64,000 nt of DNA. Source: Owenia fusiformis. Taxonomy: Eukaryota. Where the stretch lies: the NCBI GenBank assembly GCA_903813345.2, contig CAIIXF020000001.1, positions 11,284,001 through 11,348,000 of the forward strand, given 5' to 3'. Position numbers and translations under genes: made by a program. Positions 1 through 37,609 of this stretch are shown here, one piece after another (the stretch's first letter is position 1; the number at the start of each line of letters is the position of its first letter). A model generated the notes under the pieces. It saw nothing but the letters and a program-made list of their open reading frames with translations, was not told where the DNA came from and searched no databases.

Positions 1-3000
1 GGTATATCTGAAGTAGGTGTAGTCCAATGGCCTCTAGTGGTGTGCCTCATTGTGTCATGGGTAGTCATATTCTTCTGCCTCTGGAAGGGAGTCAAATCTA
101 TGGGCAAAGTAAGAGAAAATACATACATGTATCTTTGTAAAACACTTTAAAGATGAGACCAGTTTTATTGATTTTTGAAACTGCAGATTTTTTTTAACCC
201 ATTGTAAGTATCTGGATGGTGTCATACATTCTTTTCTGAAAAAGAGTAAAAATAAATTATTTTAATATTTTAGAGATTTTGAACAAATTATTTGATTATA
301 TTTGGCTAACTGAAAATATTTGTATTATATTTTCTATATTTCTCTTTTAATTACCATGTTTCAGGCTGTGTATTTTACTGCTGGGTTCCCCTATGTTGTG
401 CTTACTATACTGCTAGTACGTGGTGTCACTCTACCAGGGTCTATGGATGGAATCATCTACTACCTTAAGCCAGAGTGGAGTAAACTCAGTCAGCCACAGG
501 TAAGTCATAGGGAGGTTGAAATATATGTTTTCAAGAGAGGTAGAATTATGGTCCTTTACGGATTAGTTCTACCCTTCATCCTTCATAGTATTGACTCGCC
601 CAATTGAGTATAAAGGTTATAGGTCAAATAATTGTAATCAGCTCCCTTGAAAACCAATTGAGAGAGATGGGGACTGTATACTCCAGGATAATTAAAGTAC
701 AAGTTCATATACAAGATCTCTAAAAATGTGTAGCCTTATCTATCTAATAATAAAATATAGTAATATATTATACACATACTCAATCAAATTGAAGAAAGAT
801 TGATTTAAGGTAATTGATGACGTAACTTGGCTCCACGCAAAAGCATTTAAGCAATGATTTGACATGTGTTTGGCTTTAGGACACATGAATTCTGTGATAT
901 CGCACTGAGTTTTTAATTTGGAAGCATTAAATTAATTACGTGATTAACATTAAATATTGAAAAAATGTATTTTTGGAAGAGCAATAGTAAAAAAGGAAGT
1001 TGATGAAAGTTGATTTTTAAAGTTCGTGGCATAAATGTTGTTGTTCAGTACATTCTGTAAATCCTGTCGTTCTCTCATACCCAAATGGATCAAAATGTTT
1101 TCTAGTTTTTAATTGCAACATTACAGGTGTGGGGCGAAGCATGTGTGCAGATCTTCCTCTCTCTGGCCCTTGGAACAGGTGGCTGGGTCACACTGTCAAG
1201 TTACAACAAATACAGTAACAATTGTAGAAGGTATGAAGTGTGACTATGGACGCCTTATTTGCATGGAGAGCTTATATTAATTTTACTTCTTCAGTACACC
1301 ATTTACATTACCTGAGAAATGTAGATTGATTGAAACCACATGTTACGATTCTGTTTGGGATATCATTGGTTTGACAACTATTTGAATGGATTCACTTTTA
1401 AACTTTCTTTATGTGCCTTTATTGGAATCTATCAATATCTTATAGGTATTCCATAAAGTAACATCTCCAAGTAATATTGAACTTGAAGAATCCTGTTCAA
1501 TATTATTTAAATAACCTCAATATTATTGACATTTCAGGGATGCTATTATAGTTGCCATAGCAAACAGTGTCACAAGTCTCTACGCCGGGTTCGTCATCTT
1601 CAGTGTCCTTGGGTTCATGGCTTACAAAAAGGGAGTCAATGTTGCTGATGTGGCTGATGTTGGTAAGAAGTCTCTCTTCAAAATCTCTTGTCTCTGTATT
1701 ATGTTGACAGAAATAATTCATTTCTTGCATAAACATGTAGTGCAAATTCGCTGATTCTTTTAACAGGTGCACATAACCAAAACATTGTTAACCATAATAT
1801 GCAACCGTAAAAATCATCAGATGATAACATACTCTGGAATTATTAACATTACTCAATTTATCACATCAAAACTATGGCTCAGTTTCATAAAGGACCATAT
1901 GTTGTTTGTAGAATGAATCTTGGGAGCTTTTTCATGCATTTCGCTTGTGTTTTTCATCTAAAAAACATCAATACACTTTAAAACATTTCATGGACTATAA
2001 GATTACACCATAGAATCCTAAAAAATATTTCTCATTTTCAAGGATTATCTATGGATTAACACCCAGGTATTGTTATTTTTCAAACTTCAGATCTGGGAAT
2101 CATTATTACGATCATTTTTTAATAATATTAATGCTGTTTTAAATAGGTTTCATGTATGCCAATAATTTCTCAAATTGCTTAAATGGTACCCCATCCTTAA
2201 TCCCAAGAATTTTCTCTTTGAGTAATTTCCCATAGTAATCCAATGGTATAGTTCCAAGCAGATTTTGAGATAACAGGAAAGTAAATCATTAATACACACC
2301 TTATTGGCTTGTTTTGGTTTATATCACAAGCCAATGAGGTGTGTATTAATCATTAACTTTAACTTGATAAAAGTTAATATTGCATTTATTTTGATTGTAG
2401 GGCCTGGTCTTGCCTTTGTTGCATACCCTGAAGGCCTAGCCATGATGCCCGGTGCACCTTTCTGGTCCATATGTTTCTTTGTTACCATGTTCACTGTCGG
2501 CCTTGATAGCTTGGTAGGTACCTTCATCTGTTGTAATATTCAATTTACTTATATATTAAATTATTTCTATTTCTACATTAAATTTTAGTTCTCTGTATTA
2601 AAGTAAAACTTTGTTTAAGGAGTGCAGCCAGCTGGTGAAAATATTAGTACTGCCAGTTGCAGTACAACGTTCATATATTCAATTAATCGATTATCCATCA
2701 ATGCTCAATGGAGGTAAAGTCATTACCTCAAATCCTGCTTAGATTTCGTATAAAAGTAAATGTGTTGTTGCCATTCCAGTTCACTCAGGTAGAAACCATC
2801 ATCTGTGCCTTGGTGGATGAGTTCCCTAAACTGAAAGAAAAGAGAAAGATTGTTACATTAGTTTTCTGTGTCATACTTATGCTGCTGGGAATCCCCCTAG
2901 TCACTCAGGTAGGAGAATCTACATAAACCAGGTAGTGGATAACTTGTCAATATTATCAGTAATCTCTCCAGCATTAAAGCAAAAGGGCGCTGCATCTACT

Positions 3001-15054: not shown

Positions 15055-16140
15055 CTAATGAGATCCAGCAGTGAATTTATCATCAAAGAATTTCACCTTG
15101 GGCCATTCTGTTCCATCTCCTGTTTGTCTGAACACAAGCTGAGCAGGAAGGATAAAATTAAAAGGCCAAAAATCGCCAAAAACAGATCTAAAGTTTTGCT
15201 TTGTGCCAGATGTCACTTTTAGTCTTTTACCAGAAGTGACTTCATTTGAGGTTTTTCCAATCGATATGATATACATATGCCATATAAAAAACCCTGTAGC
15301 TACTAATGCAGCCCACCAAAGGATGTACAGGTGTATGACTAATACACAGTGATGGCCAAGCATTTCCCCCGTGATCCACTTAAATACTGCTACTGGTAGT
15401 ATAAAATCAGTTAATGCTGAAGCAGGATAAAATGTATGGTAAATGTAGTACACCTCGTGAGGGAATGCAATGAGGGTAGCAACAGCTGAGTAAAAATTAA
15501 GAAATACGAAGTATCTCTGGTTGAAGTATCCTATACATACTCCTGTCACGTAGCAATGATGATCACGTTTACGAATACACTTGTCGCATATTTTACAATG
15601 GTGCACCCTTGGAGGCATACGATGATTACATGTATTACAGTATGGCCAGGTTTCTCTTTTCCTTTCAACCCCATCTAGAAACACCTTGGTGTCATCCCAT
15701 AAGAGTTTATCCACATGAGGTCTATCAAGTGTTTCTTCATAAAATGTCCCAGTGAAATGACAACAGGCCCAGTTTCCAAGACACTGGATGAAAATGAACA
15801 CAGTTAGCACTTTCAAAGCATAACATATCCAGTCAGCGTAGAAGCCATAGCAAAATGGTATTATGTAGGCCATGACAACATAGAAGGTCGATATAGCACA
15901 AAACCAAAAGATCGTCATGGCTAATCTATTAGCCATACGACCAGTACTGGATTTTCCTGTTGCATAATAGTTCTCGATCTTTTCCATAAGGGTTAATTCT
16001 TTAGGCTGCTTGAAAATTGCCCTATAGAGGGCAGACTGATTATTGTTGCTGCTATATGAAGACATCTTCGAGTCTAATGCTATTTCTTTAACTTCAGCTT
16101 GACGATCAGCTTCAGTCGTTTCTGTGGTTCGTTGCCTCAT
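15055..16140 (-). CDS. DHHC palmitoyltransferase, ZDHHC22/ZDHHC24-like, 361 aa, single coding exon
   Basis: DHHC cysteine-rich domain CNTCNHRMPPRVHHCKICDKCIRKRDHHCYVTGVCIGYFNQRYF, four hydrophobic segments, TTxE-like KTSNE, and PaCCT-like NFRSVFG..W. The ATG at 16140 lies just after the acceptor tattttcag| (exon starts 16141), so the ORF-track start at 16200 is intronic. A probable upstream non-coding exon has its donor gaag|gtaagt at 16708. Confidence 0.93.
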   Translation of the reverse strand: MRQRTTETTEADRQAEVKEIALDSKMSSYSSNNNQSALYRAIFKQPKELTLMEKIENYYATGKSSTGRMANRLAMTIFWFCAISTFYVVMAYIIPFCYGFYADWICYALKVLTVFIFIQCLGNWACCHFTGTFYEETLDRPHVDKLLWDDTKVFLDGVERKRETWPYCNTCNHRMPPRVHHCKICDKCIRKRDHHCYVTGVCIGYFNQRYFVFLNFYSAVATLIAFPHEVYYIYHTFYPASALTDFILPVAVFKWITGEMLGHHCVLVIHLYILWWAALVATGFFIWHMYIISIGKTSNEVTSGKRLKVTSGTKQNFRSVFGDFWPFNFILPAQLVFRQTGDGTEWPKVKFFDDKFTAGSH

Positions 16141-16799
16141 TCTGAAAATATTGAAACAACTAACTGAAACCTGGTTTAATCTAAATTTGTTTTTTAGCAA
16201 GCCTATGGCTTAATTTGGGAAGAATACACAATTGGTTTTGATGATTTTTGTGTGGTTAATGAGATGTCATCTGAAAATTGCTGTTGCATCCACGTCCAAT
16301 TATGGCACATTGATACAACACCACAACCAGTTTAGCGCAGTGATTCTGTTCATACTATCATTAGATGGAAAAACTTCCAGTGTAGTTATAGAGAAAACAT
16401 GTAGATGGTGCTGACTGTGCCATAAATTGATAGTCTACATAATATAGCCCTATAAAGGACTCTTGATTTGCCTGGAGTCGAGAGTCGATCGATTCAATTT
16501 GAGGGTCGATGGATTTTATTTCAGATCTCAAATCTAATAATGACAAATTGAGAGTCCTTTATACATGTAGCGCTAACCTGAGACCATCATTTTATGTTAG
16601 TCTCAGGTGCTAACATATAAACATTCTTTTCGATTGCTGTATGGATAACCAATGGGCTTTCACTTTCTCTTGAAAGCCCATGGGATATCTTCACAGTCAG
16701 CACTTACCTTCTTCTAAGGCCACTGTATCGTGGCCTTCATCCAAAGATAAATTCCTGCATGTATAAAGGGTCATGTCGTAATCATAAAATTTGAAATCA

Positions 16800-27882: not shown

Positions 27883-28192
27883 AGCGGTACCAAGGGCTTC
27901 ATGGGTGATCGAATGTCCATAGAGAGATGGTAGTACTGTAAACCTGAGAATATCAATATAAGTATATTCTTATATTCTCTTTAACTGTCATCTTTTTATT
28001 GGCCTAAAGCCTATGTTCTGTTTTTTCTATTTGTACTCAGAGTGTATCCAAATTGTTAGTACACACACATGTCATCCAGCTATAAATGGACTAAGAGTGG
28101 TATAGCTATTAGCTATAGCTATGTATTATCATTGTGCGCTTAGCTGTCTTTTTACAATTTTGTTTCATCAGCATCTGTCCATATATGATATC

Positions 28193-31100
28193 CTATCGGC
28201 AGAACCGACATGTACGCCTGCAGTACCTGCTCATAAATGTACGTCTTTTGGTGCACTCCCCCGCCCTCATATATATCAAGCAACGGCCCGGGTCTTGGTC
28301 TGTGCAGGTAGATCCTAAACAAAAATGATTTTTTTTTCATTATTATTGAGCTAACAAAATCAGAGTGGAAAAAGAAATCACGTCACTATAATAAGTACAA
28401 TTAATTAAGATATCAGGGGTAAATACAATTACTATTTCCTATACTCACTCTGTGGATTTTCTCGCTCTGAAGATTGATTTGAACGGCAATAGTTGCAAGA
28501 CTTGTAACAATTTGTCCTCATGTATTCTTCATTTGTCCTACAGGCTCCACGTACAGCCCAACTTGGGCATTCTGATGGCTTCTGGTCTATACATGACCCA
28601 CCTGCAGGAAGATTTCAATAGATTATATCGATACATGGAATTCGGGAGAGGGTGCCGATAGATGCTGGATGTGGGGAAGTAATCTAAAAACAAAATGGTT
28701 GCATTTATCGATATTCCAGTCAAACTGGTGAATGTCATCCACATACCAGTTTATAGTATTGAAATCTTCATCTATTACATACACAGATTTTCATTTTCAC
28801 GATTTCGGCACACATGAACAATTTGAATTAGTTTTAGCCATTTTGAAAGCAGTTATTACGTGAATATAAAACAAAGGAAACTGTGCCTCAACTTTTTCGT
28901 ACATAAATTTCCCTAAATGTTACCGTGGCTTTTGTCCACAGAATACGGTGTTCTTGTTGGACAAGTCTTTTTGTTGCATTTCTTGTCTTGATAACTCACT
29001 CCATTACAAGAAGAACCTATGCAAGCACGCCGTCTCCTCGTGCTTCCTCCCGCACAAGACCTGCTGCAGGTAGACCACGTACCCCACTGAGCCCATCTAC
29101 CTGGAAAAAATCAAACATAAGTCCTTGACCCAATATTTACCCTACCTTAGTAATTGACCATTCGGAAAGTTTTGCTGAAGATGAAAGTTAAACAAATCCG
29201 ATGGTTTATGTACCATAGCGAAGTCGACGGAAAGATAGCAGAAGTGATCCGTCTGTCTTCGAGAAGAGATATAGCCAGACCACCACTGTCTCTCTCTGTT
29301 CATGAGTGCCTGTGTTTATATTGGCTATTTACCTTCATAACTACAAGTTCTTTATTTTCGAATTGAAGCCCCATAGAAGGCGAGACTGGTTCGTCGTAGA
29401 TATGGACAGTAAGACGACACAATAGCCCAATGAAAATGATTTATTATACATCATCACTTTTGATCGACTCACTTTTGGTTGTGCATGATTGAGTATTACA
29501 TTTTTTATCCTGAACAGATATTCCTTTACACGAATATCCTCGGGGGACACACGACCGCGTTCGTCTCTTGGATCCAGCCCCACACGAACGTGAACACGCC
29601 GTCCACGACGACCACGAGTCCCATTTGCCTGAAATGTTTGAATGATACAATATGTATTTTGTTATACAGGGTGTTCCAAAAGTAACAGGACTGGTGCTGG
29701 CATTTTGTTGAATATGCACCAATCGTCTTCAAAATGTTACATCATGTACTTTCATGTATTGTTACTAAAACTTCAAAGTTTTGACAAAAATTATGAAACT
29801 GGAGTAGAGTTATGGTTGCTATGGTACCATGACATCACAATAGCCGGGGCAACATTCCACGCAGAAAGTTACAGAGACTATAAGCATTTTGTACATCCCA
29901 TATCAAAGTTAGAATCCAACAACTGGTGGGAATTACATTTGCTAAATACATCATTTAATATTCCTATATGTATCCTCTACTTTGAAAAGTGCGGTCCTCT
30001 TTAGTTAGTCCAAGAGTAGCACTCTGTATCCATGATTCAAACACATGAGTAAACCCATTTGATGACATCACGCAGGATCGATATGACAACTTGGAGATGG
30101 TCAATCTCATCTTTAAAGGTCTTACCACACTGATTAGCATTCCATTCTATATATAAATGTAAAAATTAGATATTGCATGATCAGAAGAGTATGGTGCATG
30201 GTCTTAGACCTCAAAACCTAAGCTCTGCTATAGCTGCAGTGGTCTTTAATGCTGACTTGTGGACAGGCGCCATTATCAAGGTGGATGACTGGCTTCAAAT
30301 TAGGTATTTTCAAAAACTCAACAGTGAATTGCGCAGACTGTTATACATAATGATATTTCAGGAAATTGAATTAATATTAAAATTATTAAATCAAATTTGA
30401 ATCTGAGTTGTATAGCAACACCATCACTATAAAGCAACTAATAAAACAAACAAGAAATGTTGTATTGTAATAGGTGAACTAGATACTTTCTTCAGTAATA
30501 TAAAAATGTTAGAAATTACATTTTCATGAAAAAGTTGCCCCGGGTATTGTGATGTCACGTTTCTATAGTAACCATAACTTAACCCGCCTTTTATTATTTT
30601 TTCTGAACCTTAACAATCTTAGTTGCACTACGTCAAAGTACAATTTGTGAAAATTTGAACACACTCGGTGCATAATTGACAAAATGTCAGCACCAGTCCT
30701 GTTACTTTTGGAACACCCTGTACTAATCGGATAACTACTTTTTTCACCATAGTAGCGATATTTACGAATTTTACCATATGAAAATTATGTGGTGTTTTAT
30801 TTATTTACAAAAACGGAATAAGTACCATTTCGGCTGCATGGATTGGTGTTACATTTCTTTGATTGTGTTGTTGCTCCGGAGCATGTCCCATACGCGCATG
30901 TACGACGCCTCAGCCTAGAGCCTGTCCCGCAGGACTTCGTGCATTGATTCCACTCACCCCAGTCACGCCATTCACTCGCTGAAATTGATAGTCAATAGAT
31001 TATCATTTGCACGAAACAATGTTTTCATGTTCGATCCATGAATCTTTTTTTCTTTACTCAAGTCTTTACTCTTGGTGGGCTGCAATGTATCATATATTGA

Positions 31101-34100
31101 CTCACATTATGTTTTAGGCCTTTCACCCAAATGGTACACTAAAATTGTGACCCTTTATAACACTAGTGAACACAAATTATAGTAACATGTTATACAATTT
31201 TCATGATATCATTTTGTATATGAATTTTAAGTGGATGATTTATTTTAAGTGAATATGTAATGTGTGGCTTCAATGAAGACATGCATTAGCCGCTCCTCTG
31301 TTACTTATCACTATATCAGGATCTAGGCTCACTTTTACTTGCTGTACATGATTTACTGTTGCACGATTTCCATTGATAATTAAGACCTTTACAATTAGAT
31401 CCATTACACGTTCTTCTCCTGGATTTAGTCCCGCCTCCACATTTCTCTGAACACGTGGACCAAGTTGCCCATGCGTTCCATTTCGCTACAAAAAATGATC
31501 AGTTGACTTAATGTTCATGATATTCTCTCAATTACCAAGTCAATATTACGATGTATTTCGGATGGTGCTCTAGGCAGAAATAATCAGCAACTTATGAAAT
31601 CACTATTATGCACTATCTTGTTTAATTGCACTATGTATCTAAGTGTAATTGTACCTGAAATAAAAACTTCGCTAATACGACTCTTCGATATAAAGATGGC
31701 AGAAGCAGCAGTAGCCTTGCCCCAAGTCGGTATTATCTTTTATTTATATTGATTTTCAATTATATAGCAGTGAAAATATAAGAATAAAAAAAGTCAAAAG
31801 ATACCGACCTAGGCAAGGCTACAGCAGCATCAGAATCATATATCTATTTCTAAATGCCCTTAACCTATGATTATACCTCTTGGACAAGAACGTGTGTTGC
31901 AGCGAGCCGTTTTATATGAATCTCCAGTACAACCTTGATCGCTGCAATATCTTCTCCTTACTTTTGTACCACCTCCACAACTCTTGGAACATGTTTCCCA
32001 CGATGCCCACGGATGCCATTTTCCTGGAATATTTAAGCACACCCTGACGCAATTGTTATAAGATGGTGCGTGGTCATTAGATGAGATGAATGGGCCCTCT
32101 AAAGCAAATCAACATTTTGAACACTGTTAGTGAAAGAACCAACAGCAATATTTAAACACACCCTGACGCAATTGATGGCAACTGAGTCATAGATCCGGTC
32201 ATAGGCAATCTACTCTACACTGAGCTAAACTTAACAAGACCAAACAAAATTGGAGGGCGTCAAACTATTGCTCAAGTGCATCATCGACTGAATTTCAAAT
32301 ACATATTTTAGGTCTTGGGAACTACACTACTATTTCACATAAAAGCAGCTTTTTCAAAAACGATCATCGTAATTAATTGTTATAAAATATCATGGTTTAT
32401 ATATCTCTTCAATGGTGCACTGAAATAGTCTAGTTTGTTGAACTTATACTTTTGCTGGTATTCGTAGATAAATGATCGTGACAGAAATAAAATTCGAAGT
32501 TATTTATCTGGATATCTTCATACTTATTAACCAGTAATTTGATGAAAGTACAGGTCTGGCAAATGTATCCGTTTGTCAGGGACCAAGTTACACAATTTGA
32601 TTTGACATTTTGGAGCTTTGTCTGGTCCGGTACAGGTTAGTCTTGCGTGGTGTATACTCGTCAATAAAGCCCTGATACATTAGGTTGAAACTGATTTTCA
32701 TTTACGATTTGTAATGTGATTCGAGCATATCATATACACCGAGGTACATGTACACAATACCATATTCAATTCCAGACTTGCTAATTTTCGAAGACTTCTG
32801 ACATTTCTGTCTGCAAACATTTCTGTCTGCAAATAATATATCTAGCCAATACATGCCCTACTTTACTTGATTCGCCAAAAGTGGGTCAGAAAGGTTTATT
32901 TTATATACGGTATGAATTTTGATTGCATCCATTTTACCAACTTATACGAACAACTGTCATATTGATAGAAGATACTCTTCTTAATAGTTATACATACCTC
33001 TGGATGGGCACCTACTCGTGCCACAAGAACCAGTTTCCCTTGACGACCCGCTACAATTCCTCCCATAGCAACGGCGTTGCCTGGTCCGTGTTCCTCCACC
33101 ACAGGATCTGCTACATGATCCCCATGATGACCAGCTGCCCCAACGACCTACGGGGATGAAAAGCATTATCATTTTTACACAAGAGTGAAATTTGAGAATG
33201 TTGAATACTGCAGATAAAGCCGCAAATGGGGCTTATAAACATTTCTGAAGGGCTCATTTTTGAGGGGGTTTAAAAAACTAATCATTTCAGTAGATTACAT
33301 TTCAAGCCTGGTGGAAATGGAAATGGGCCATGGTTTAGAACGTTTATTCTGTGATGACATTTTCTTCAGACACGCGGCTCACCGGTTAAGTCTAATATTG
33401 ATTTGACTTACATCCCCCCATCAAAAGGAAATGGTGTGGGCAACAGGGGGCAAGCGGTGTCCTCGGAACTCCTTTTCTCTGTAGAAGATTAATCGATGTA
33501 ATCTTTGTAATCATAGGATAAACAATACCTGATGATGGTTTATTCCAACCGCACGCATTGCATGACTTTTTGCAGTATGCCAACATATAGGTCGGATTGC
33601 GTCGACACTGATCTTGTTTTGCCCATGCGCTACAATAGGCAGCGTAATCGTAGCAGTTAACGCTGCCACCACTACCAGAACCTGTAAAATCATTAAAGTT
33701 TTTGAAAGTTATATTGCCTTTGTAAAAAGTGTGAGCGAGTGTTTATAATTAAAAAGTGAATACTACTAAGTAAAAACTGAAATTTTCAATAACCTTGAAA
33801 TTGTATTCTGTGCAAATGTTAAATTACTTTGAAATCATACCTTATTCAGAATAATTAATTAATTCAATTAAGCATGATTAAGGGATTATGAAAGTTTGGA
33901 ATACGGAAGATATTTTCACAAATCGTTACCTGAACCATTCGAGCAACTTCTCAGTCTGCAGGCTTTGGTTTCACTTCCAGAACCACTGCATTTCCCTCCG
34001 TAGCAGCTTCTCCTTCTTGAGTAGACACCCTGGTCGCATGTTTTGGAGCAGCTGCTCCATGACGACCATACCGTCCAACGCCCTCGTGGAGGCGTCGTTG

Positions 34101-37100
34101 GACGAGATCCACCAGATCCACCAGATCCACTAGATCCACTGGATCCACTATTCCGCCCATATAAGCTCTGTATTCCATTGATGTCATCTTGGTGTAGACT
34201 GAAGTCTTCTACGAAACCCTGGTAAAATGGATACATCGTCGCTCCCAATACATTAGTGTGGTCCAAACCAAGTGAATGCCCCAATTCGTGAACAGCAACA
34301 ATGAACAAATTGGTTCCTGAAATACAACAATGAAATAAAACTGCAAAGATCCACTATGATAGGACGTAAAGACCAGTGATCATTATTGTCAAAACTAGGA
34401 GAAATGTGTGGAGACCCTACGTCTCAAATACGTTAATTATCTGTGTGGAGAATTCATTTCAAGTATCACATTTTCTCTTTAATTTGCACAATACTTGAAA
34501 GCTAGGTCAAAAGATATTAATGAGGCAAGAGAACAGGTTTGGAGATTTTTGAATTGCCAGATAATCATGTGCAACTAAACGAATATATGTCCTTACCTTT
34601 TTTCGTATTAGCTGTGTATGATTCTGCATCATCAAAATGTAAGTCGCCTTTCGATGGATAAAACGCATGTGCAAGAACACTTCCAGGTCCATCAAATGGG
34701 TATCCATCGCCATGGTCCCCATTTTCAAATCTTATAGCAATATCGGCCTTTCCAGATGTTCTCGAGAACTTCAGGTCGGATACCTTGCTCCATTCCTGTA
34801 AAGCATTGTAGATGTCACGGTCTATTTGTGAACGTGACAAATCTCGTGAATAGTTCTCGATCTTATAGGTTAGTGATTTCTTGGACCATTTGGCTGAAAG
34901 AAGTAATATGAACGAGTGAAGATCCAAATCAATGAACTTTTTTGGTTTTTGGTGTCTGTTGCGTTATGATCACTCCTTACCACTATCTAACGTGTACACA
35001 ATTTATTTAGCAATTTTGATCCGAAGGGATAACTGTAATCAGAGCTAACATGTACGCAGACTCTAGTTGTAAACTACCGATGAAGATGAAGTCGAAGCTC
35101 TCTTTTAATAAGCGAAGTCGAACGAATGTAAAGAGTAGGTCAAGCCCGAGGCCCAAGAATGTTTAAAATGTAGCTAATTGCTCATATGTATGTACTAGAC
35201 TGTATGTACACTCCCTCGAAACAATTTTTCTTCTTTAAAAAAGGTTCCAAAACTTTTGGATGGGAGTGTTACGAGTGTATACCAATTACATTTACATATA
35301 GTTTAGCCTTGACTGTAAACGATGGATAATTGGTTGATATACCACAATAATTTTTAAAACACTGTGCTGCATTCCTCGACCTCTGCAAGTTCAGAAAAAC
35401 TATCACCTTACTGCCATTTGGACTTTTGATTTTCCACGGAACCAAAGTTACATAGCCTACTTTATACTTACACTGCGTGACAAATCTCTTCTTGCGCCCG
35501 TTAATAATTGGATCTGGCATTCCGCATCGCTTCCAGTTCATTGCTTCTAGCGTCTTATCGTCTACTTCACCTACAGGATGGAGTATGCGTGTGATTTAAA
35601 TAAATAATTTATCAGAATTTGTCATCTCGGCTTTTTGGCGCGAAAGTATGAAAACTAAGAAAAAGTGATCAGTTTCCACAAAAATTAGAAGTTTTCATTC
35701 TTTATGTCACCCTGTAGCGGGTTAAATATGGCATGCGGTTCGTTCAAGTCAATTTGACCTCAGCCCAATATGCAAGCTTCATGTGCCACATTAGACAGAC
35801 ACAAACAACACAGGCTACTGCTCAGAACAGTGAGCTTTACAATAAGATAGAGATCTCTAAAATAAACTCAGAGATACCAAAAACACTAACTTGCGATAAA
35901 ATGTACATGCAAGGTCTACCTGTAGCGGGAATTCTGGCATATCGCTGGAAGTTAGCAACGCTTGCTTTTACAGCTGATTCTGCATCAGTTATAGAGGCCC
36001 CTTTCTTTGGAGTTCGAAGGTAACCAAATTTCATCAGATATGTCTGCAAGGATTGGAACAATAAAAGTGAAAGTTTTTGTTATAGTTAATTGAAGAGCCT
36101 ACCCGACCCCTTATCCACTTCAACAACATGAACTATAGGGTCTTGTAATCTGTGCTCAGGCACAGGTGGATCACAAGATCTGGAAATAGGTTTCATTGAT
36201 TTTTATAATTTGGAAAAATCAAGAAAATTTTAGTTCTCATAGAAACCAACGAAACAATGATATTTAAAACATAATACCTTTTACCTTTTAACCTGGCTAG
36301 ACAATCAATGATTTATTTTTGAAGTTTAGGATATTATTAGAAAAGATTTGCATAGAATTTTTTTCCAAATTTTTCATAAAGTTTTTGCCATCTGTGTGAT
36401 GGCATGATGATATGCTAAAACATTGAAGTGGCACATTAGATATGACATTTTATTTTGAAATAGTGTGTCCTTTGTTTAATCTTTGCTTTGGTGTGAAAAA
36501 TAATGTTTTTTTGCACTGTATCGTGAAATATTTGATGATTAAAACTTTTATTTAAAATGGGGGGAAATTTGAATATTTGAGAAACTTTTGAAGTCATGAC
36601 GAATATTAAATGAATGACAAAAACTTATTTTCAAACTTTACACGGGGCACGTCCCATCATTACATGTCCAGCTGTTTTACTTCTTGAATGTACATGTACT
36701 GTAGAACACATAGATATTCATAACAGACTCGCAATACAGCTTTAATTTGGTATTATTCGGCTATATTTCACAAAATGATTGATAGAAACAATTATGGACT
36801 TCCGAAAATGTCAGAGTATTATGACAAAGAACCCTTTTTCAACAAATAAACTTTGTCTGACTCTTCAGTATGTCAGTATGCACGACCACTGTCACGTTTT
36901 GTCGAACTTGCATCCTGGAGTAAAATTTCAACCACAACAATTGGCCCCGATGTCTGCGCTCTAGAATTAGGTTGGAAGACATTTCTTGTAACTGAAGTTG
37001 GTATACATTACTTAATAGTCTAAATAAATCCCAGTGTTCTTAGACAAGTTCAGCCTAACCCTTTAGCTGATTCATAATGTAGATGAATGGAATATACATA

Positions 37101-37401
37101 CCGCTGCATCAAGAAACGACCTGTACACTTTTCCCACTTTCTTTTCTATTTTGTCTGTCACTTTATCTATTTTAGCAGCAGCAGATTCTATCTTCTTATC
37201 TATTTTATCAGATGCTTTCCCAACTCTTCTGTTTATTTTGTCAATAACTTTAGTTATTCCACCGTCAATTGTTTCCTTTAGACTCGTAAATGGATTTTTA
37301 AAATTGGCTGGTCCTTCTGATTCCGCACTTTCAACATCATATATGACGATCAACGTCATACAAAGCATCAACAACAAATATCGAAATGGCAACATGTTCA
37401 T
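28193..37401 (-). CDS. Matrix metalloproteinase (M10A), ~856 aa: signal peptide, amphipathic repeat, prodomain, catalytic domain, TSP1, ShKT, 6xTSP1, 2xShKT; no hemopexin
   Basis: Phase-consistent GT-AG exons (5' to 3'): 37401-37102, 36043-35920, 35570-35472, 34893-34597, 34316-33930, 33681-33529, 33147-32998, 32023-31877, 31485-31333, 30978-30826, 29628-29473, 29100-28924, 28601-28449, 28314-28193 (TAG); total 2571 nt. Motifs: YLMKFGYL, cysteine switch KRCGMPD, furin site [40 protein letters not shown], Met-turn ATMYP, seven WxxWxxW..C...C TSP1 units and three ShKT units. AATAAA on the - strand at 27995-28000. Confidence 0.93.
29667..30720. mobile_element. Tc1/mariner-type MITE in an MMP intron
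   Basis: TA|cagggtgttccaaaagtaacaggactggtgctggcattttg ... caaaatgtcagcaccagtcctgttacttttggaacaccctg|TA. Diverged inverted arms extend ~170 bp. Confidence 0.9.
31711..31823. repeat. Short hairpin/MITE-like inverted repeat in an MMP intron
   Basis: gtagccttgccccaagtcggtat pairs with ataccgacctaggcaaggctac. Flanked by gcagca on both sides. Confidence 0.6.
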
Positions 37402-37609
37402 GATTGAGTGTATTTCCGACGACAAGTCAATCGCCAGCTTCAGTATAGCAATGGCAAATGACCCTGGTCTTCAGGTTGTGGTTGTGATGGTAAAATGAGG
37501 ACTCAAGTTCTCGAAATGTCAATAAATACTTCCATGTTTGCAGGAATCCGGTTATAAAGTGGACGCTCAAATATCTTCGAGTTTTGTGACGCTCCAACAA
37601 GCCACTTAG

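Follow-up and report, generated by a model that had tools for sequence, protein, structure and literature searches.

A matrix metalloproteinase gene of Owenia fusiformis with TSP1 and ShKT modules in place of hemopexin

Our goal was to understand whether a locus of the annelid Owenia fusiformis encodes a matrix metalloproteinase (MMP) that ends in TSP1 and ShKT modules instead of hemopexin and, if so, what such a tail might do. The DNA analysed, hereafter the window, is a stretch of 64,000 nucleotides. An earlier note, made from this DNA alone, had placed the gene at 28193..37401. Those coordinates are exact, running on the minus strand from the ATG to the last base of the stop codon (Table 1).

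One gene and one transcript

The gene has 14 exons and its product is 856 amino acids long. All 13 junctions have a GT donor and an AG acceptor. RNA mapping across them, which the earlier note had named as the check on its exon chain, recovered 13 of 13 in spliced contigs of two runs, each from a different study. The joint between exons 1 and 2 (36043/37102) is present in both X6 and X13 contigs, and those between exons 6 and 7 (33145/33527) and exons 13 and 14 (28313/28448) were also found in transcript contigs. One X13 contig (record 1; 2789 nt, 28147-37573) covers the entire mRNA, and comprises 46 nt of 3' UTR, the stop codon, 2568 nt of coding sequence and 172 nt of 5' UTR. Note that these UTR ends are minimal: the transcript contigs take the 5' UTR to at least 37573 and the 3' UTR to at least 28147. 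The joined translation of the 14 exons equals P0231 letter for letter over 856 residues. The same Owenia fusiformis protein is deposited as CAH1772995.1 (GenBank) and A0A8J1UAB7 (UniProt), where it is annotated as uncharacterised.

Domains were assigned by Pfam scans, both exon by exon and on the whole protein, and those reported are above the gathering cut-offs. The results are shown in Table 1. Exon 1 also matches MT0933_antitox at 19.4 bits; the cut-off of this profile is 27, and the match was rejected as noise.

Table 1. Exons of the Owenia fusiformis MMP gene, in order of transcription; positions are those of the window.
Feature	Positions	Strand	Length	Content	Evidence
Exon 1	37102..37401	-	300 nt	Residues 1-100; ATG at 37401, hydrophobic putative signal peptide, Lys-rich extension	Sub-threshold Pfam match only
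Exon 2	35920..36043	-	124 nt	MMP prodomain, PG_binding_1 fold	Pfam E 3.4e-6
Exon 3	35472..35570	-	99 nt	End of prodomain, cysteine switch KRCGMPD and RKKR	Motif scan, 9csx alignment
Exon 4	34597..34893	-	297 nt	N-terminal two thirds of catalytic domain, structural-zinc positions	Peptidase_M10 E 5.7e-33
Exon 5	33930..34316	-	387 nt	Catalytic C-terminus, Gly/Ser/Pro hinge, TSP1 repeat 1	M10 E 4.4e-19, TSP_1 E 3.4e-8
Exon 6	33529..33681	-	153 nt	ShKT domain 1	Pfam ShK E 1.5e-7, PDB 2mcr E 5.7e-6
Exon 7	32998..33147	-		TSP1 repeat 2	Pfam TSP_1
Exon 8	31877..32023	-		TSP1 repeat 3	Pfam TSP_1
Exon 9	31333..31485	-		TSP1 repeat 4	Pfam TSP_1
Exon 10	30826..30978	-		TSP1 repeat 5	Pfam TSP_1
Exon 11	29473..29628	-		TSP1 repeat 6	Pfam TSP_1
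Exon 12	28924..29100	-		TSP1 repeat 7 and linker	Pfam TSP_1 and TSP1_ADAMTS
Exon 13	28449..28601	-		ShKT domain 2	Pfam ShK E 2.6e-8, PDB 2k72 E 6.8e-4
Exon 14	28193..28314	-		ShKT domain 3, stop codon 28195-28193	Pfam ShK E 1.2e-6

Multidomain chimeras are a common error of gene prediction, according to PMC3927612. Logically, adjacent MMP and TSP1/ShKT genes could have been fused here by annotation, read-through or misassembly. We regard this as extremely improbable. When scanned exon by exon, exon 5 alone encodes both the C-terminus of the catalytic domain and the first TSP1 repeat and, since one exon holds both, the fusion of MMP and tail is physical. In addition, all 13 joints, with a single frame and one stop, are found in contigs of two studies, one of these contigs being full-length. 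We conclude that the catalytic and TSP1/ShKT parts belong to one gene and one mRNA; the shared exon and the contig joints refute a merged-gene artefact.

The exons follow a regular pattern. The phase is 1 for every intron from 2 to 13, each exon carries one domain, and from exon 3 on the exon lengths are divisible by 3. The tail was probably built by shuffling and tandem duplication of such one-domain exons in the lineage leading to Owenia. This assembly would not be recent, because identity between the repeats of the tail is no more than 38-57%. Exon 6 has an alternative donor 117 nt downstream, with 33412 as its last base, whose use would lengthen the protein by 39 residues; a 39-residue extra stretch is carried by a partial database isoform, P0001, when compared with the gene model.

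The protease and its tail

The earlier note described a complete MMP pro- and catalytic unit. Pfam, motif scans and an alignment to pro-stromelysin-2 (9csx) agree on this, and protease activity is predicted. In the whole protein, PG_binding_1 matches residues 101-152, while Peptidase_M10 (PF00413) matches residues 176-327 with E 6e-56 and covers profile positions 1-159 of 159. The prodomain is preceded by a Lys-rich extension of about 75 residues with KIDK-type repeats. The cysteine switch, KRCGMPD at residue 155, has Lys where Pro is usual (PRCGxPD type), and a furin-type site, RKKR, lies in the same exon, which encodes the end of the prodomain (residues 167-170 for RKKR). The HExxHxxGxxH zinc motif, [11 protein letters not shown], is at residue 283 and the Met-turn, ATMYP, at residue 299; the motif scan found both [22 protein letters not shown] and ATMYP. 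In the 9csx alignment (189 bits) the cysteine switch is kept, as are the His, Asp, His and His that we take to be the structural-zinc ligands. The catalytic domain is intact, none of the canonical positions of the zinc site, Met-turn and structural zinc being missing, and is apparently that of an active protease.

Hydropathy finds a sole hydrophobic stretch in the 856 residues, and this resembles a short N-terminal signal peptide. Because there is no other such stretch, the whole protein is without a transmembrane or GPI segment, in line with the earlier note. Judged by hydropathy only, the product looks like a secreted protein rather than a membrane-bound one.

After the Gly/Ser hinge the modules follow in the order TSP1-ShKT-(TSP1)x6-ShKT-ShKT, just as had been read from the sequence before any Pfam scan. 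Pfam finds seven stretches of TSP_1 (E 3e-45) and three of ShK (E 1.6e-12) in the whole protein. Each of the three ShK stretches is above cut-off when scanned singly, and their six cysteines align. The tail has 60 cysteines, equivalent to 6 for each of the ten modules. A motif scan shows WxxW in 7 of 7 TSP1 repeats and CxxS/TCxxG in 6 of 7. The TSP1_ADAMTS profile scores 44 bits on the whole protein (cut-off 23.8), and repeat 7 passes when scanned by exon. The tail is also Arg/Lys-rich, as first noticed, with 96 Arg and Lys against 25 Asp and Glu in 511 residues. The absence of hemopexin holds too: the whole protein has no match to Hemopexin (PF00045) at E<=0.01. Similarly, tblastn of 13 hemopexin or PAN tails against the whole window gave nothing better than E 0.3, leaving no sign there of a hemopexin remnant.

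The proposal that the ShK-like modules are releasable fared less well. Three further R-x-K/R-R motifs exist, but these sit inside TSP1 repeats, in the Arg-rich strand, and not in linkers. The motif scan found no dibasic sites in the linkers around the ShKT units. Hence, releasable ShK modules have no sequence support. The channel-blocking dyad of ShK is Lys-Tyr (PMC6409789). At this position ShKT1 has Thr-Tyr, where 2mcr has Lys-Tyr, ShKT2 has Glu-Tyr, where 7od2 has Lys-Tyr, and ShKT3 has Thr-Phe in our own alignment. The Lys is missing in 3 of 3 units.

Expression, variation and possible function

The gene is transcribed, but not everywhere. Contig depth is about 350-1080 in run X6, although depth of this kind measures expression poorly. 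In the RNA runs X16 and X17, for which about 6% of the raw reads were used, coverage of the exons is near zero. The difference suggests that expression is restricted by tissue or stage. One raw read of X17 crosses the joint between exons 7 and 8 (32022/32997). Heavy coverage by X16 and X17 at 29605-29925, 30568-30888 and 36346-36666 was discounted, as it reflects multi-copy repeats and not expression of the gene.

Differences between individuals are unevenly placed. In X6 and X13 contigs catalytic exons 4 and 5 match the reference without a single difference, whereas variation is seen in the tail exons. The most polymorphic is exon 13, encoding ShKT2, with 11 differences in 152 nt of the X13 contig. 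Among the 20 coding differences listed, not one alters a cysteine or creates a stop, and 7 of the 12 nonsynonymous differences listed fall in ShKT2. A rapidly evolving interaction surface would account for this clustering no less well than a simple anchor.

The reading that we favour, with a probability of about 0.6, is drawn from domain content. The protein would be a secreted MMP, activated by furin, with a basic tail that tethers it to matrix or glycosaminoglycans and steers its choice of substrates in an ADAMTS-like manner. Its propeptide consists of the unusual Lys-rich extension and a three-helix prodomain of the ordinary MMP kind, which holds the cysteine switch. Within the secretory pathway, a furin-type convertase would cut behind RKKR(170) and so release the active enzyme, in which a flexible Gly/Ser/Pro hinge lies between the catalytic domain and a strongly basic, disulfide-rich tail of about 510 residues. 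The tail could anchor the protease to sulfated glycosaminoglycans or to other ligands of the matrix or cell surface. It may also serve as an exosite that selects substrates, which is the role of hemopexin in MMPs and of the TSR-containing ancillary region in ADAMTS. These roles of hemopexin and of TSRs are established knowledge; we know of no established matrix-binding role for ShKT modules. The role of TSRs in ADAMTS is described in PMC1867822.

A rather unlikely alternative follows the logic of MMP23. Here, the ShKT modules would be what matters in the tail, binding and modulating ion channels, of the potassium or another type, on the animal's own cells or, were the protein secreted outward, on those of other organisms; the TSP1 repeats would be spacers only. 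The best solved match of ShKT2 is indeed the toxin domain of MMP23 (2k72), and that of ShKT1 is a ShKT peptide of a nematode metalloprotease (2mcr; Table 1). Polymorphism in the gene also peaks in ShKT2, as expected of a surface under changing selection. Set against this, the pore-plugging Lys is missing in all three modules, although MMP23 modulates Kv1 channels without a Lys-Tyr dyad (PMC6409789). ShKT domains are, moreover, common in multidomain proteins that are not toxins (PMC6409789 and PMC9848320), and seven TSP1 repeats would be a costly spacer.

Alternatively, the protein might be an external secretory product that an epithelium or gland delivers to the tube lining, mucus or gut. Its task there would be the processing of secreted material, digestion of food or defence, roles of the kind proposed for astacins with ShKT modules. 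We consider this unlikely as an explanation in its own right. Owenia is a tube builder, which would suit such a role, and the contrast in depth between X6 (about 350-1080) and the raw-read runs X16 and X17 (near zero) is in keeping with it, poor as depth is as a measure of expression. There is also an analogy to the astacins with ShKT modules, whose main sites of expression are barrier epithelia or the digestive tract (PMC9848320). Note, however, that this proposal concerns the site of action and is compatible with the molecular mechanism of the tethered, furin-activated MMP that we prefer.

Relatives and the search for the same architecture

With canonical secreted, furin-activated MMPs (M10A matrixins) the Owenia protein shares a predicted signal peptide, a PG_binding_1 prodomain, the cysteine switch, RKKR and a full catalytic domain. 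It differs in its Lys-rich N-terminal extension and in the TSP1/ShKT array that replaces hemopexin. An MMP with ShKT, for which the earlier note cited vertebrate MMP23, is found there but is not restricted to it, since cnidarians also have MMPs with pro, catalytic and ShKT domains. MMP23, like the Owenia protein, has an M10 catalytic domain followed by ShKT and lacks hemopexin. MMP23 has an Ig-like C2 domain at its C-terminus, an N-terminal signal anchor and no cysteine switch. In contrast, the Owenia protein has three ShKT and seven TSP1 modules, a cysteine switch and what looks, by hydropathy only, like a cleavable signal peptide, and Pfam finds no Ig-family match in it. The ShKT 'toxin domain' and Ig-like domain of MMP23 are described in PMC1867822. 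Among Atlas feature matches for the whole protein, the MMP23 cluster ranks only 19th. The nearest is a cnidarian '50 kDa hatching enzyme-like' cluster (score 0.88; ShK in 65% of 71 members). Cnidarian MMPs of about 300 residues, such as A0A7M5WV05 of Clytia hemisphaerica, resemble the Owenia protein in ending with ShKT and lacking hemopexin, but have a single ShKT and no TSP1. UniRef names P0283 a 'ShKT domain-containing protein'.

ADAMTS and ADAMTS-like proteins offer another comparison. Like the Owenia protein, as predicted, they are secreted and furin-processed metzincins with a basic C-terminal TSP1 array, and the nearest Atlas clusters of the tail are ADAMTS-like TSR arrays (score 0.85), which is to be read as a lead only. 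The Owenia catalytic domain, however, is M10 and not reprolysin M12B, with Reprolysin_3 at 19.8 bits falling below the cut-off of 22.4. Furthermore, no Pfam match to disintegrin-like, cysteine-rich, spacer or PLAC modules was found in it at E<=0.01. Astacins (M12A) of nematodes, cnidarians and others also place ShKT and/or TSP modules after a metzincin unit (PMC9848320). The design idea is the same, but the catalytic family is different: the Owenia protein has no match to Astacin (PF01400) at E<=0.01. Other invertebrate MMPs with non-hemopexin tails include M10 with PAN in Owenia (P0168), M10 with PAN_4 in a representative protein (P0271), and M10 with HYR, EGF and NIDO in the sea star Patiria miniata (P0447). 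None of these tails has TSP1. They show the MMP C-terminus to be a hot spot of exon shuffling, recurrent in marine invertebrates.

The catalytic domain is 44-58% identical to many animal MMPs, and at most 58% to any relative found. In a quick IQ-TREE analysis of 85 catalytic-domain rows, none of them MMP23, the Owenia protein lies on a polytomy with no supported sister. Clytia falls in a cnidarian clade, and P0009 and P0249 form a separate pair; neither groups with the Owenia protein. On this tree the catalytic domain is an orphan branch. Being outside any supported clade, it is neither assigned to a class by the tree nor traced to the MMP lineage that received the tail. P0009 (322 aa, Logan) was considered as a case of M10 with ShK and set aside: its Cys-rich tail is ShK-like by eye, but Pfam made no call at E<=0.01 and the regular expression missed it.

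We searched for M10 with TSP1 in other proteins. In three word-index listings of 120 proteins each, only this gene's own products qualified, and the same was true of the best 150 of 4485 matches in an exhaustive HMMER search. Of the 148 non-self proteins among those 150, 75 were scanned with Pfam at E<=1e-5, and the others were covered by local HMMs built from the repeats of this gene, which detect TSP1 with good sensitivity but ShKT with less. A metagenome scan with exon 5 gave 16 loci. The match stops by query residue 55 in 15 of them and at 76 in one; none extends into TSP1, and six-frame translations of the 16 gave no match to our TSP1 and ShKT HMMs. In the literature searched we found no description of the architecture or of the accessions. 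In a survey of annelid MMPs that includes Owenia (PMC10192322), the terms TSP1 and ShKT are absent from five supplementary files; Fig. 5b and Supplementary Fig. 10, which give domain architectures and lie outside that scope, may show the gene. Hence, the combination of M10, TSP1 and ShKT was found in no other protein or paper within our searches. The earlier description, a lineage-specific and unnamed chimera, stands insofar as M10 with TSP1 is unique in these searches, but the gene was already in GenBank and UniProt as uncharacterised.

MMPs and ADAMTS are the two main metzincin families of matrix remodelling, and their ancillary domains are thought to set their substrates. It is possible, if doubtful, that the ADAMTS design arose a second time, independently, in an early-branching annelid lineage that used an MMP as the scaffold. 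In such a convergent 'MMP-TS' class, the TSR array would steer an M10 enzyme to proteoglycan-rich matrix, and the fast-varying ShKT modules would add a second activity, directed at channels or receptors. If this were true, nature would have done the experiment of asking whether metzincin substrate choice is set by the ancillary domains and not by the catalytic fold. In any case, a natural MMP with an ADAMTS-style TSR array and ShKT, and with catalytic exons identical to the reference in both runs, offers a clean test of the idea that ancillary domains set substrates. It also adds a third independent-looking case of MMP with ShKT to those of vertebrate MMP23 and the cnidarians. In practical terms its weight is modest: this is one gene of one species, deposited already but unnamed.

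The search for paralogues covered the window and protein databases, and tblastn found no paralogous exons elsewhere in the window. The other long open reading frames of the window encode an SNF transporter and a DHHC palmitoyltransferase.

Structure and transcription of the gene

Translation and Pfam scanning of each exon revealed 14 open blocks, encoding, in order, an MMP prodomain, two Peptidase_M10 halves, TSP1, ShK, six TSP1 and two ShK. All per-exon matches were above the family's own gathering score. Exon borders were set by script from frame-keeping AG/GT sites. Each of the 13 introns has GT-AG ends, with phase 1 shared by introns 2-13. The coding sequence is 2568 nt, encodes 856 amino acids and has a single stop. 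Note that exon 5 carries the second Peptidase_M10 half followed by a hinge of Gly/Ser and then one TSP1 repeat. Since this exon codes for both the zinc-binding catalytic half and the first TSP1 repeat, whatever the splicing, the fusion is written in the DNA.

Features of the MMP-TSP1/ShKT gene and its surroundings
Feature	Window positions	Strand	Details
MMP-TSP1/ShKT gene	28193-37401	minus	14 exons
Exons 1-7		minus	300, 124, 99, 297, 387, 153, 150 nt
Exons 8-14		minus	147, 153, 153, 156, 177, 153, 119+3 nt
Lys-rich segment	37102-37330	minus	exon 1, aa 24-100
CAH1772996.1 insertion	33412-33528		donor 117 nt downstream of exon 6
ShKT2 exon	28449-28601		exon 13
Intron 10 repeat arms	29665-29856 and 30531-30722		192 nt each
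Intron 1 patch	~36554-36584		multi-copy
Sodium:neurotransmitter symporter (SNF) exons	314-2585	plus	unrelated neighbour
DHHC palmitoyltransferase	15058-16209	minus	one 384-aa open block; unrelated neighbour

Assembled contigs from two public runs, belonging to two studies, were placed on positions 28000-37600. All 13 joints were present, with plus-strand ends CT..AC (GT..AG on the gene strand). One 2789 nt contig, from run X13, spans 28147-37573 and corresponds exactly to 5'UTR, CDS and 3'UTR. In run X6, the same 13 joints are spread over three listed contigs. The type on record for these runs is not RNA; because genomic introns are missing from the contigs, they must derive from spliced transcripts. 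Two genuine RNA-seq runs (raw reads, 6% sampled) yielded a handful of reads from the gene, one of them spliced. We conclude that the gene is real. The earlier note had read a complete MMP pro- and catalytic domain, followed by seven TSP1 and three ShKT modules, and this was correct.

Searching with the exon 5 protein identified a 761-aa entry with 100% identity, labelled 'unnamed protein product, partial', from Owenia fusiformis, an early-branching annelid. The same cluster contains the 856-aa CAH1772995.1 (UniRef A0A8J1UAB7, 'Uncharacterized protein'), which is the 14-exon model letter for letter. The gene model is already public, without a name. The 761-aa entry (CAH1772996.1) has its 3' end cut off and carries a 39-aa in-frame insertion between ShKT1 and TSP1-2. 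Among the joints listed, only the 856-aa form, using the upstream exon 6 donor, has splice support.

Intron 10 (1197 nt) contains an inverted repeat, the arms of which are 77% complementary and 674 nt apart. Reads and contigs pile onto this repeat, with loose ends beginning at 29663-29665 and 30722. Hence, the repeat is multi-copy and transposon-like. Intron 1 holds a second multi-copy patch.

Distribution of the architecture and its relatives

Three word-index searches, which depend on shared words, were made against 5.8 billion proteins. Queries were exon 5 (longer proteins; best 120 of 254 significant matches), residues 100-345 (best 120 of 368) and residues 101-460 (best 120 of 226). The last was chosen so that proteins with M10 and TSP1, or M10 and ShK, would outrank plain MMPs. 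Among the matches listed, PF00413 and PF00090 occurred together only in the cluster of this gene's own products. An exhaustive HMMER search with exon 4, of 1.84 billion cluster representatives, gave 4485 matches (E<=1e-3), with a best non-self identity of 58%. Among the best 150, none of the 75 scanned with Pfam (E<=1e-5) had TSP_1 or ShK. Similarly, a metagenome scan with exon 5 found 16 loci, none of which runs on into TSP1. One eukaryote-like metagenome contig (1487 nt, 37% GC) carries an MMP catalytic exon, 72% identical to the catalytic part of exon 5 and very like a 322-aa Logan protein (P0009), that stops directly after the catalytic domain at an apparent intron.

We also scanned 374 proteins with HMMs made from the gene's own repeats. 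M10 with TSP1 was found only in two products of this gene. Besides the gene itself, M10 with ShK was found in P0249 (JGI cluster, unnamed) and, as a weak match, in P0283, a 'ShKT domain-containing protein' (UniRef name) of the hydrozoan Clytia hemisphaerica. The ESM Atlas offers only a lead: its nearest cluster (score 0.88) is a cnidarian one with the pro-cat-ShK layout, and 65% of its 71 members carry ShK. M10 with TSP_1 was absent from all ESM Atlas clusters with at least 50 members. Other hemopexin replacements are M10 with PAN in Owenia (P0168), M10 with PAN_4 in a cluster representative (P0271), and M10 with HYR, EGF and NIDO in Patiria (P0447). Domain shuffling is common at metzincin C-termini. 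We conclude that MMP with ShKT is a recurrent combination. An MMP with a TSP1 array was found only here in the databases searched, which does not prove that it is absent elsewhere; species closely related to Owenia may lack sampling there.

Among 85 catalytic domains placed in a quick ML tree, the protein branches by itself from an unresolved polytomy among animal MMPs; its closest identity, 58%, is with a Branchiostoma MMP. It groups neither with the other Owenia MMP in this tree nor with any M10+ShK protein. Since it joins neither, the catalytic domain is an orphan lineage, and ShKT gains by MMPs look independent, although the weak support of the tree allows no further conclusion.

No paper describing the protein was found by architecture, by species and metalloproteinase, or by accession. 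A survey of annelid MMPs, including Owenia, reports new invertebrate MMP classes A-H (PMC10192322). The terms TSP1 and ShKT do not occur in its supplements; the architecture figures lie outside that search.

Protein anatomy and possible function

Pfam scanning of the whole protein detected PG_binding_1 (101-152), full-length Peptidase_M10 (176-327, E 6e-56), seven TSP_1 and three ShK. There was no match to Hemopexin, Ig, disintegrin, spacer, PLAC or astacin, and no hemopexin remnant anywhere within the window. Hydrophobic sequence is confined to the N-terminal signal peptide. The lack of hemopexin, TM and GPI segments noted earlier is thus upheld. A motif scan placed the cysteine switch KRCGMPD at 155, RKKR at 167-170, an 11-residue motif at 283 and the Met-turn ATMYP at 299. 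Alignment with pro-stromelysin-2 (PDB 9csx, 189 bits) shows that the switch is conserved, as are the His/Asp/His/His positions for structural zinc. By all sequence criteria tested, this is a matrixin family member. ADAMTS identity was rejected: the catalytic family is different, the disintegrin, Cys-rich and spacer modules are missing, and the likeness is one of layout only. The protein is not of MMP23 type, having a cysteine switch and no Ig domain, and the lack of a Pfam astacin match excludes an astacin.

Each module of the tail (aa 346-856) holds exactly 6 Cys, 60 in total, and the tail as a whole contains 96 Arg+Lys vs 25 Asp+Glu, in agreement with the basic TSP1 units described previously. 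WxxW occurs in all seven TSP1 repeats and CxxS/TCxxG in six; these are the motifs for C-mannosylation and POFUT2 O-fucosylation, respectively. Because the repeats share only 38-57% identity, the array has not recently expanded. The signal peptide is followed, ahead of the prodomain, by a Lys-rich, repetitive (KIDK-like) segment of ~75 aa, with no family match above threshold (Pfam, exon 1). Furin cleavage would remove it with the propeptide.

In sum, one mRNA encodes a protein with a secretory signal and a furin-type site, whose zymogen and catalytic machinery are intact and whose TSR/ShKT tail is basic, rich in disulfides and free of any membrane anchor. From knowledge of MMPs and ADAMTS, we infer that a convertase would activate the enzyme within the secretory pathway. 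The tail would tether it to sulfated glycans or matrix, pick substrates and so replace hemopexin's role; it probably arose from phase-1 exons, each coding for one domain, that were shuffled and duplicated. We give this reading a probability of about 0.6. The same chemistry is compatible with an enzyme acting externally, in a glandular, tube or digestive setting, though we think this rather unlikely. A gene-model artefact is scarcely credible, given exon 5, the complete set of joints, one frame and one stop.

The ShKT units might instead modulate channels. Their best solved matches include a nematode metalloprotease ShKT peptide (2mcr, E 5.7e-6) for ShKT1 and the MMP23 toxin domain (2k72, E 6.8e-4) for ShKT2. 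A Lys-Tyr dyad is considered essential to pore block (PMC6409789), but ShKT1, ShKT2 and ShKT3 have Thr-Tyr, Glu-Tyr and Thr-Phe at this position, all lacking the Lys. Channel activity is therefore unlikely on sequence grounds, yet conceivable, because MMP23 has Arg-Leu at the dyad and modulates Kv1 channels (same source). The earlier suggestion that the ShK-like modules are releasable was not borne out. Beyond the prodomain RKKR, R-x-K/R-R motifs occur at 476, 625 and 728, all within TSP1 repeats, and the motif scan found no dibasic site in linkers flanking ShKT units.

Variation between individuals

Relative to the reference, the catalytic exons are free of differences in the X13 transcript contig (388 + 298 nt = 686 nt). 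Conversely, over 152 nt of the ShKT2 exon there are 11 differences, and over 177 nt of the TSP1-7 exon there are 6. Of the coding differences, 20 are listed, with 30 further ones outside the listing; among these 20, 8 are synonymous and 12 nonsynonymous, with 7 of the latter in ShKT2, and none changes a Cys or creates a stop. In this small sample, and for the listed differences only, the pattern agrees with constraint on the protease and faster evolution of the distal tail. The ShKT2 exon is a polymorphism hot spot, where one nonsynonymous difference falls at the dyad-equivalent Glu and another removes an N-x-S site.
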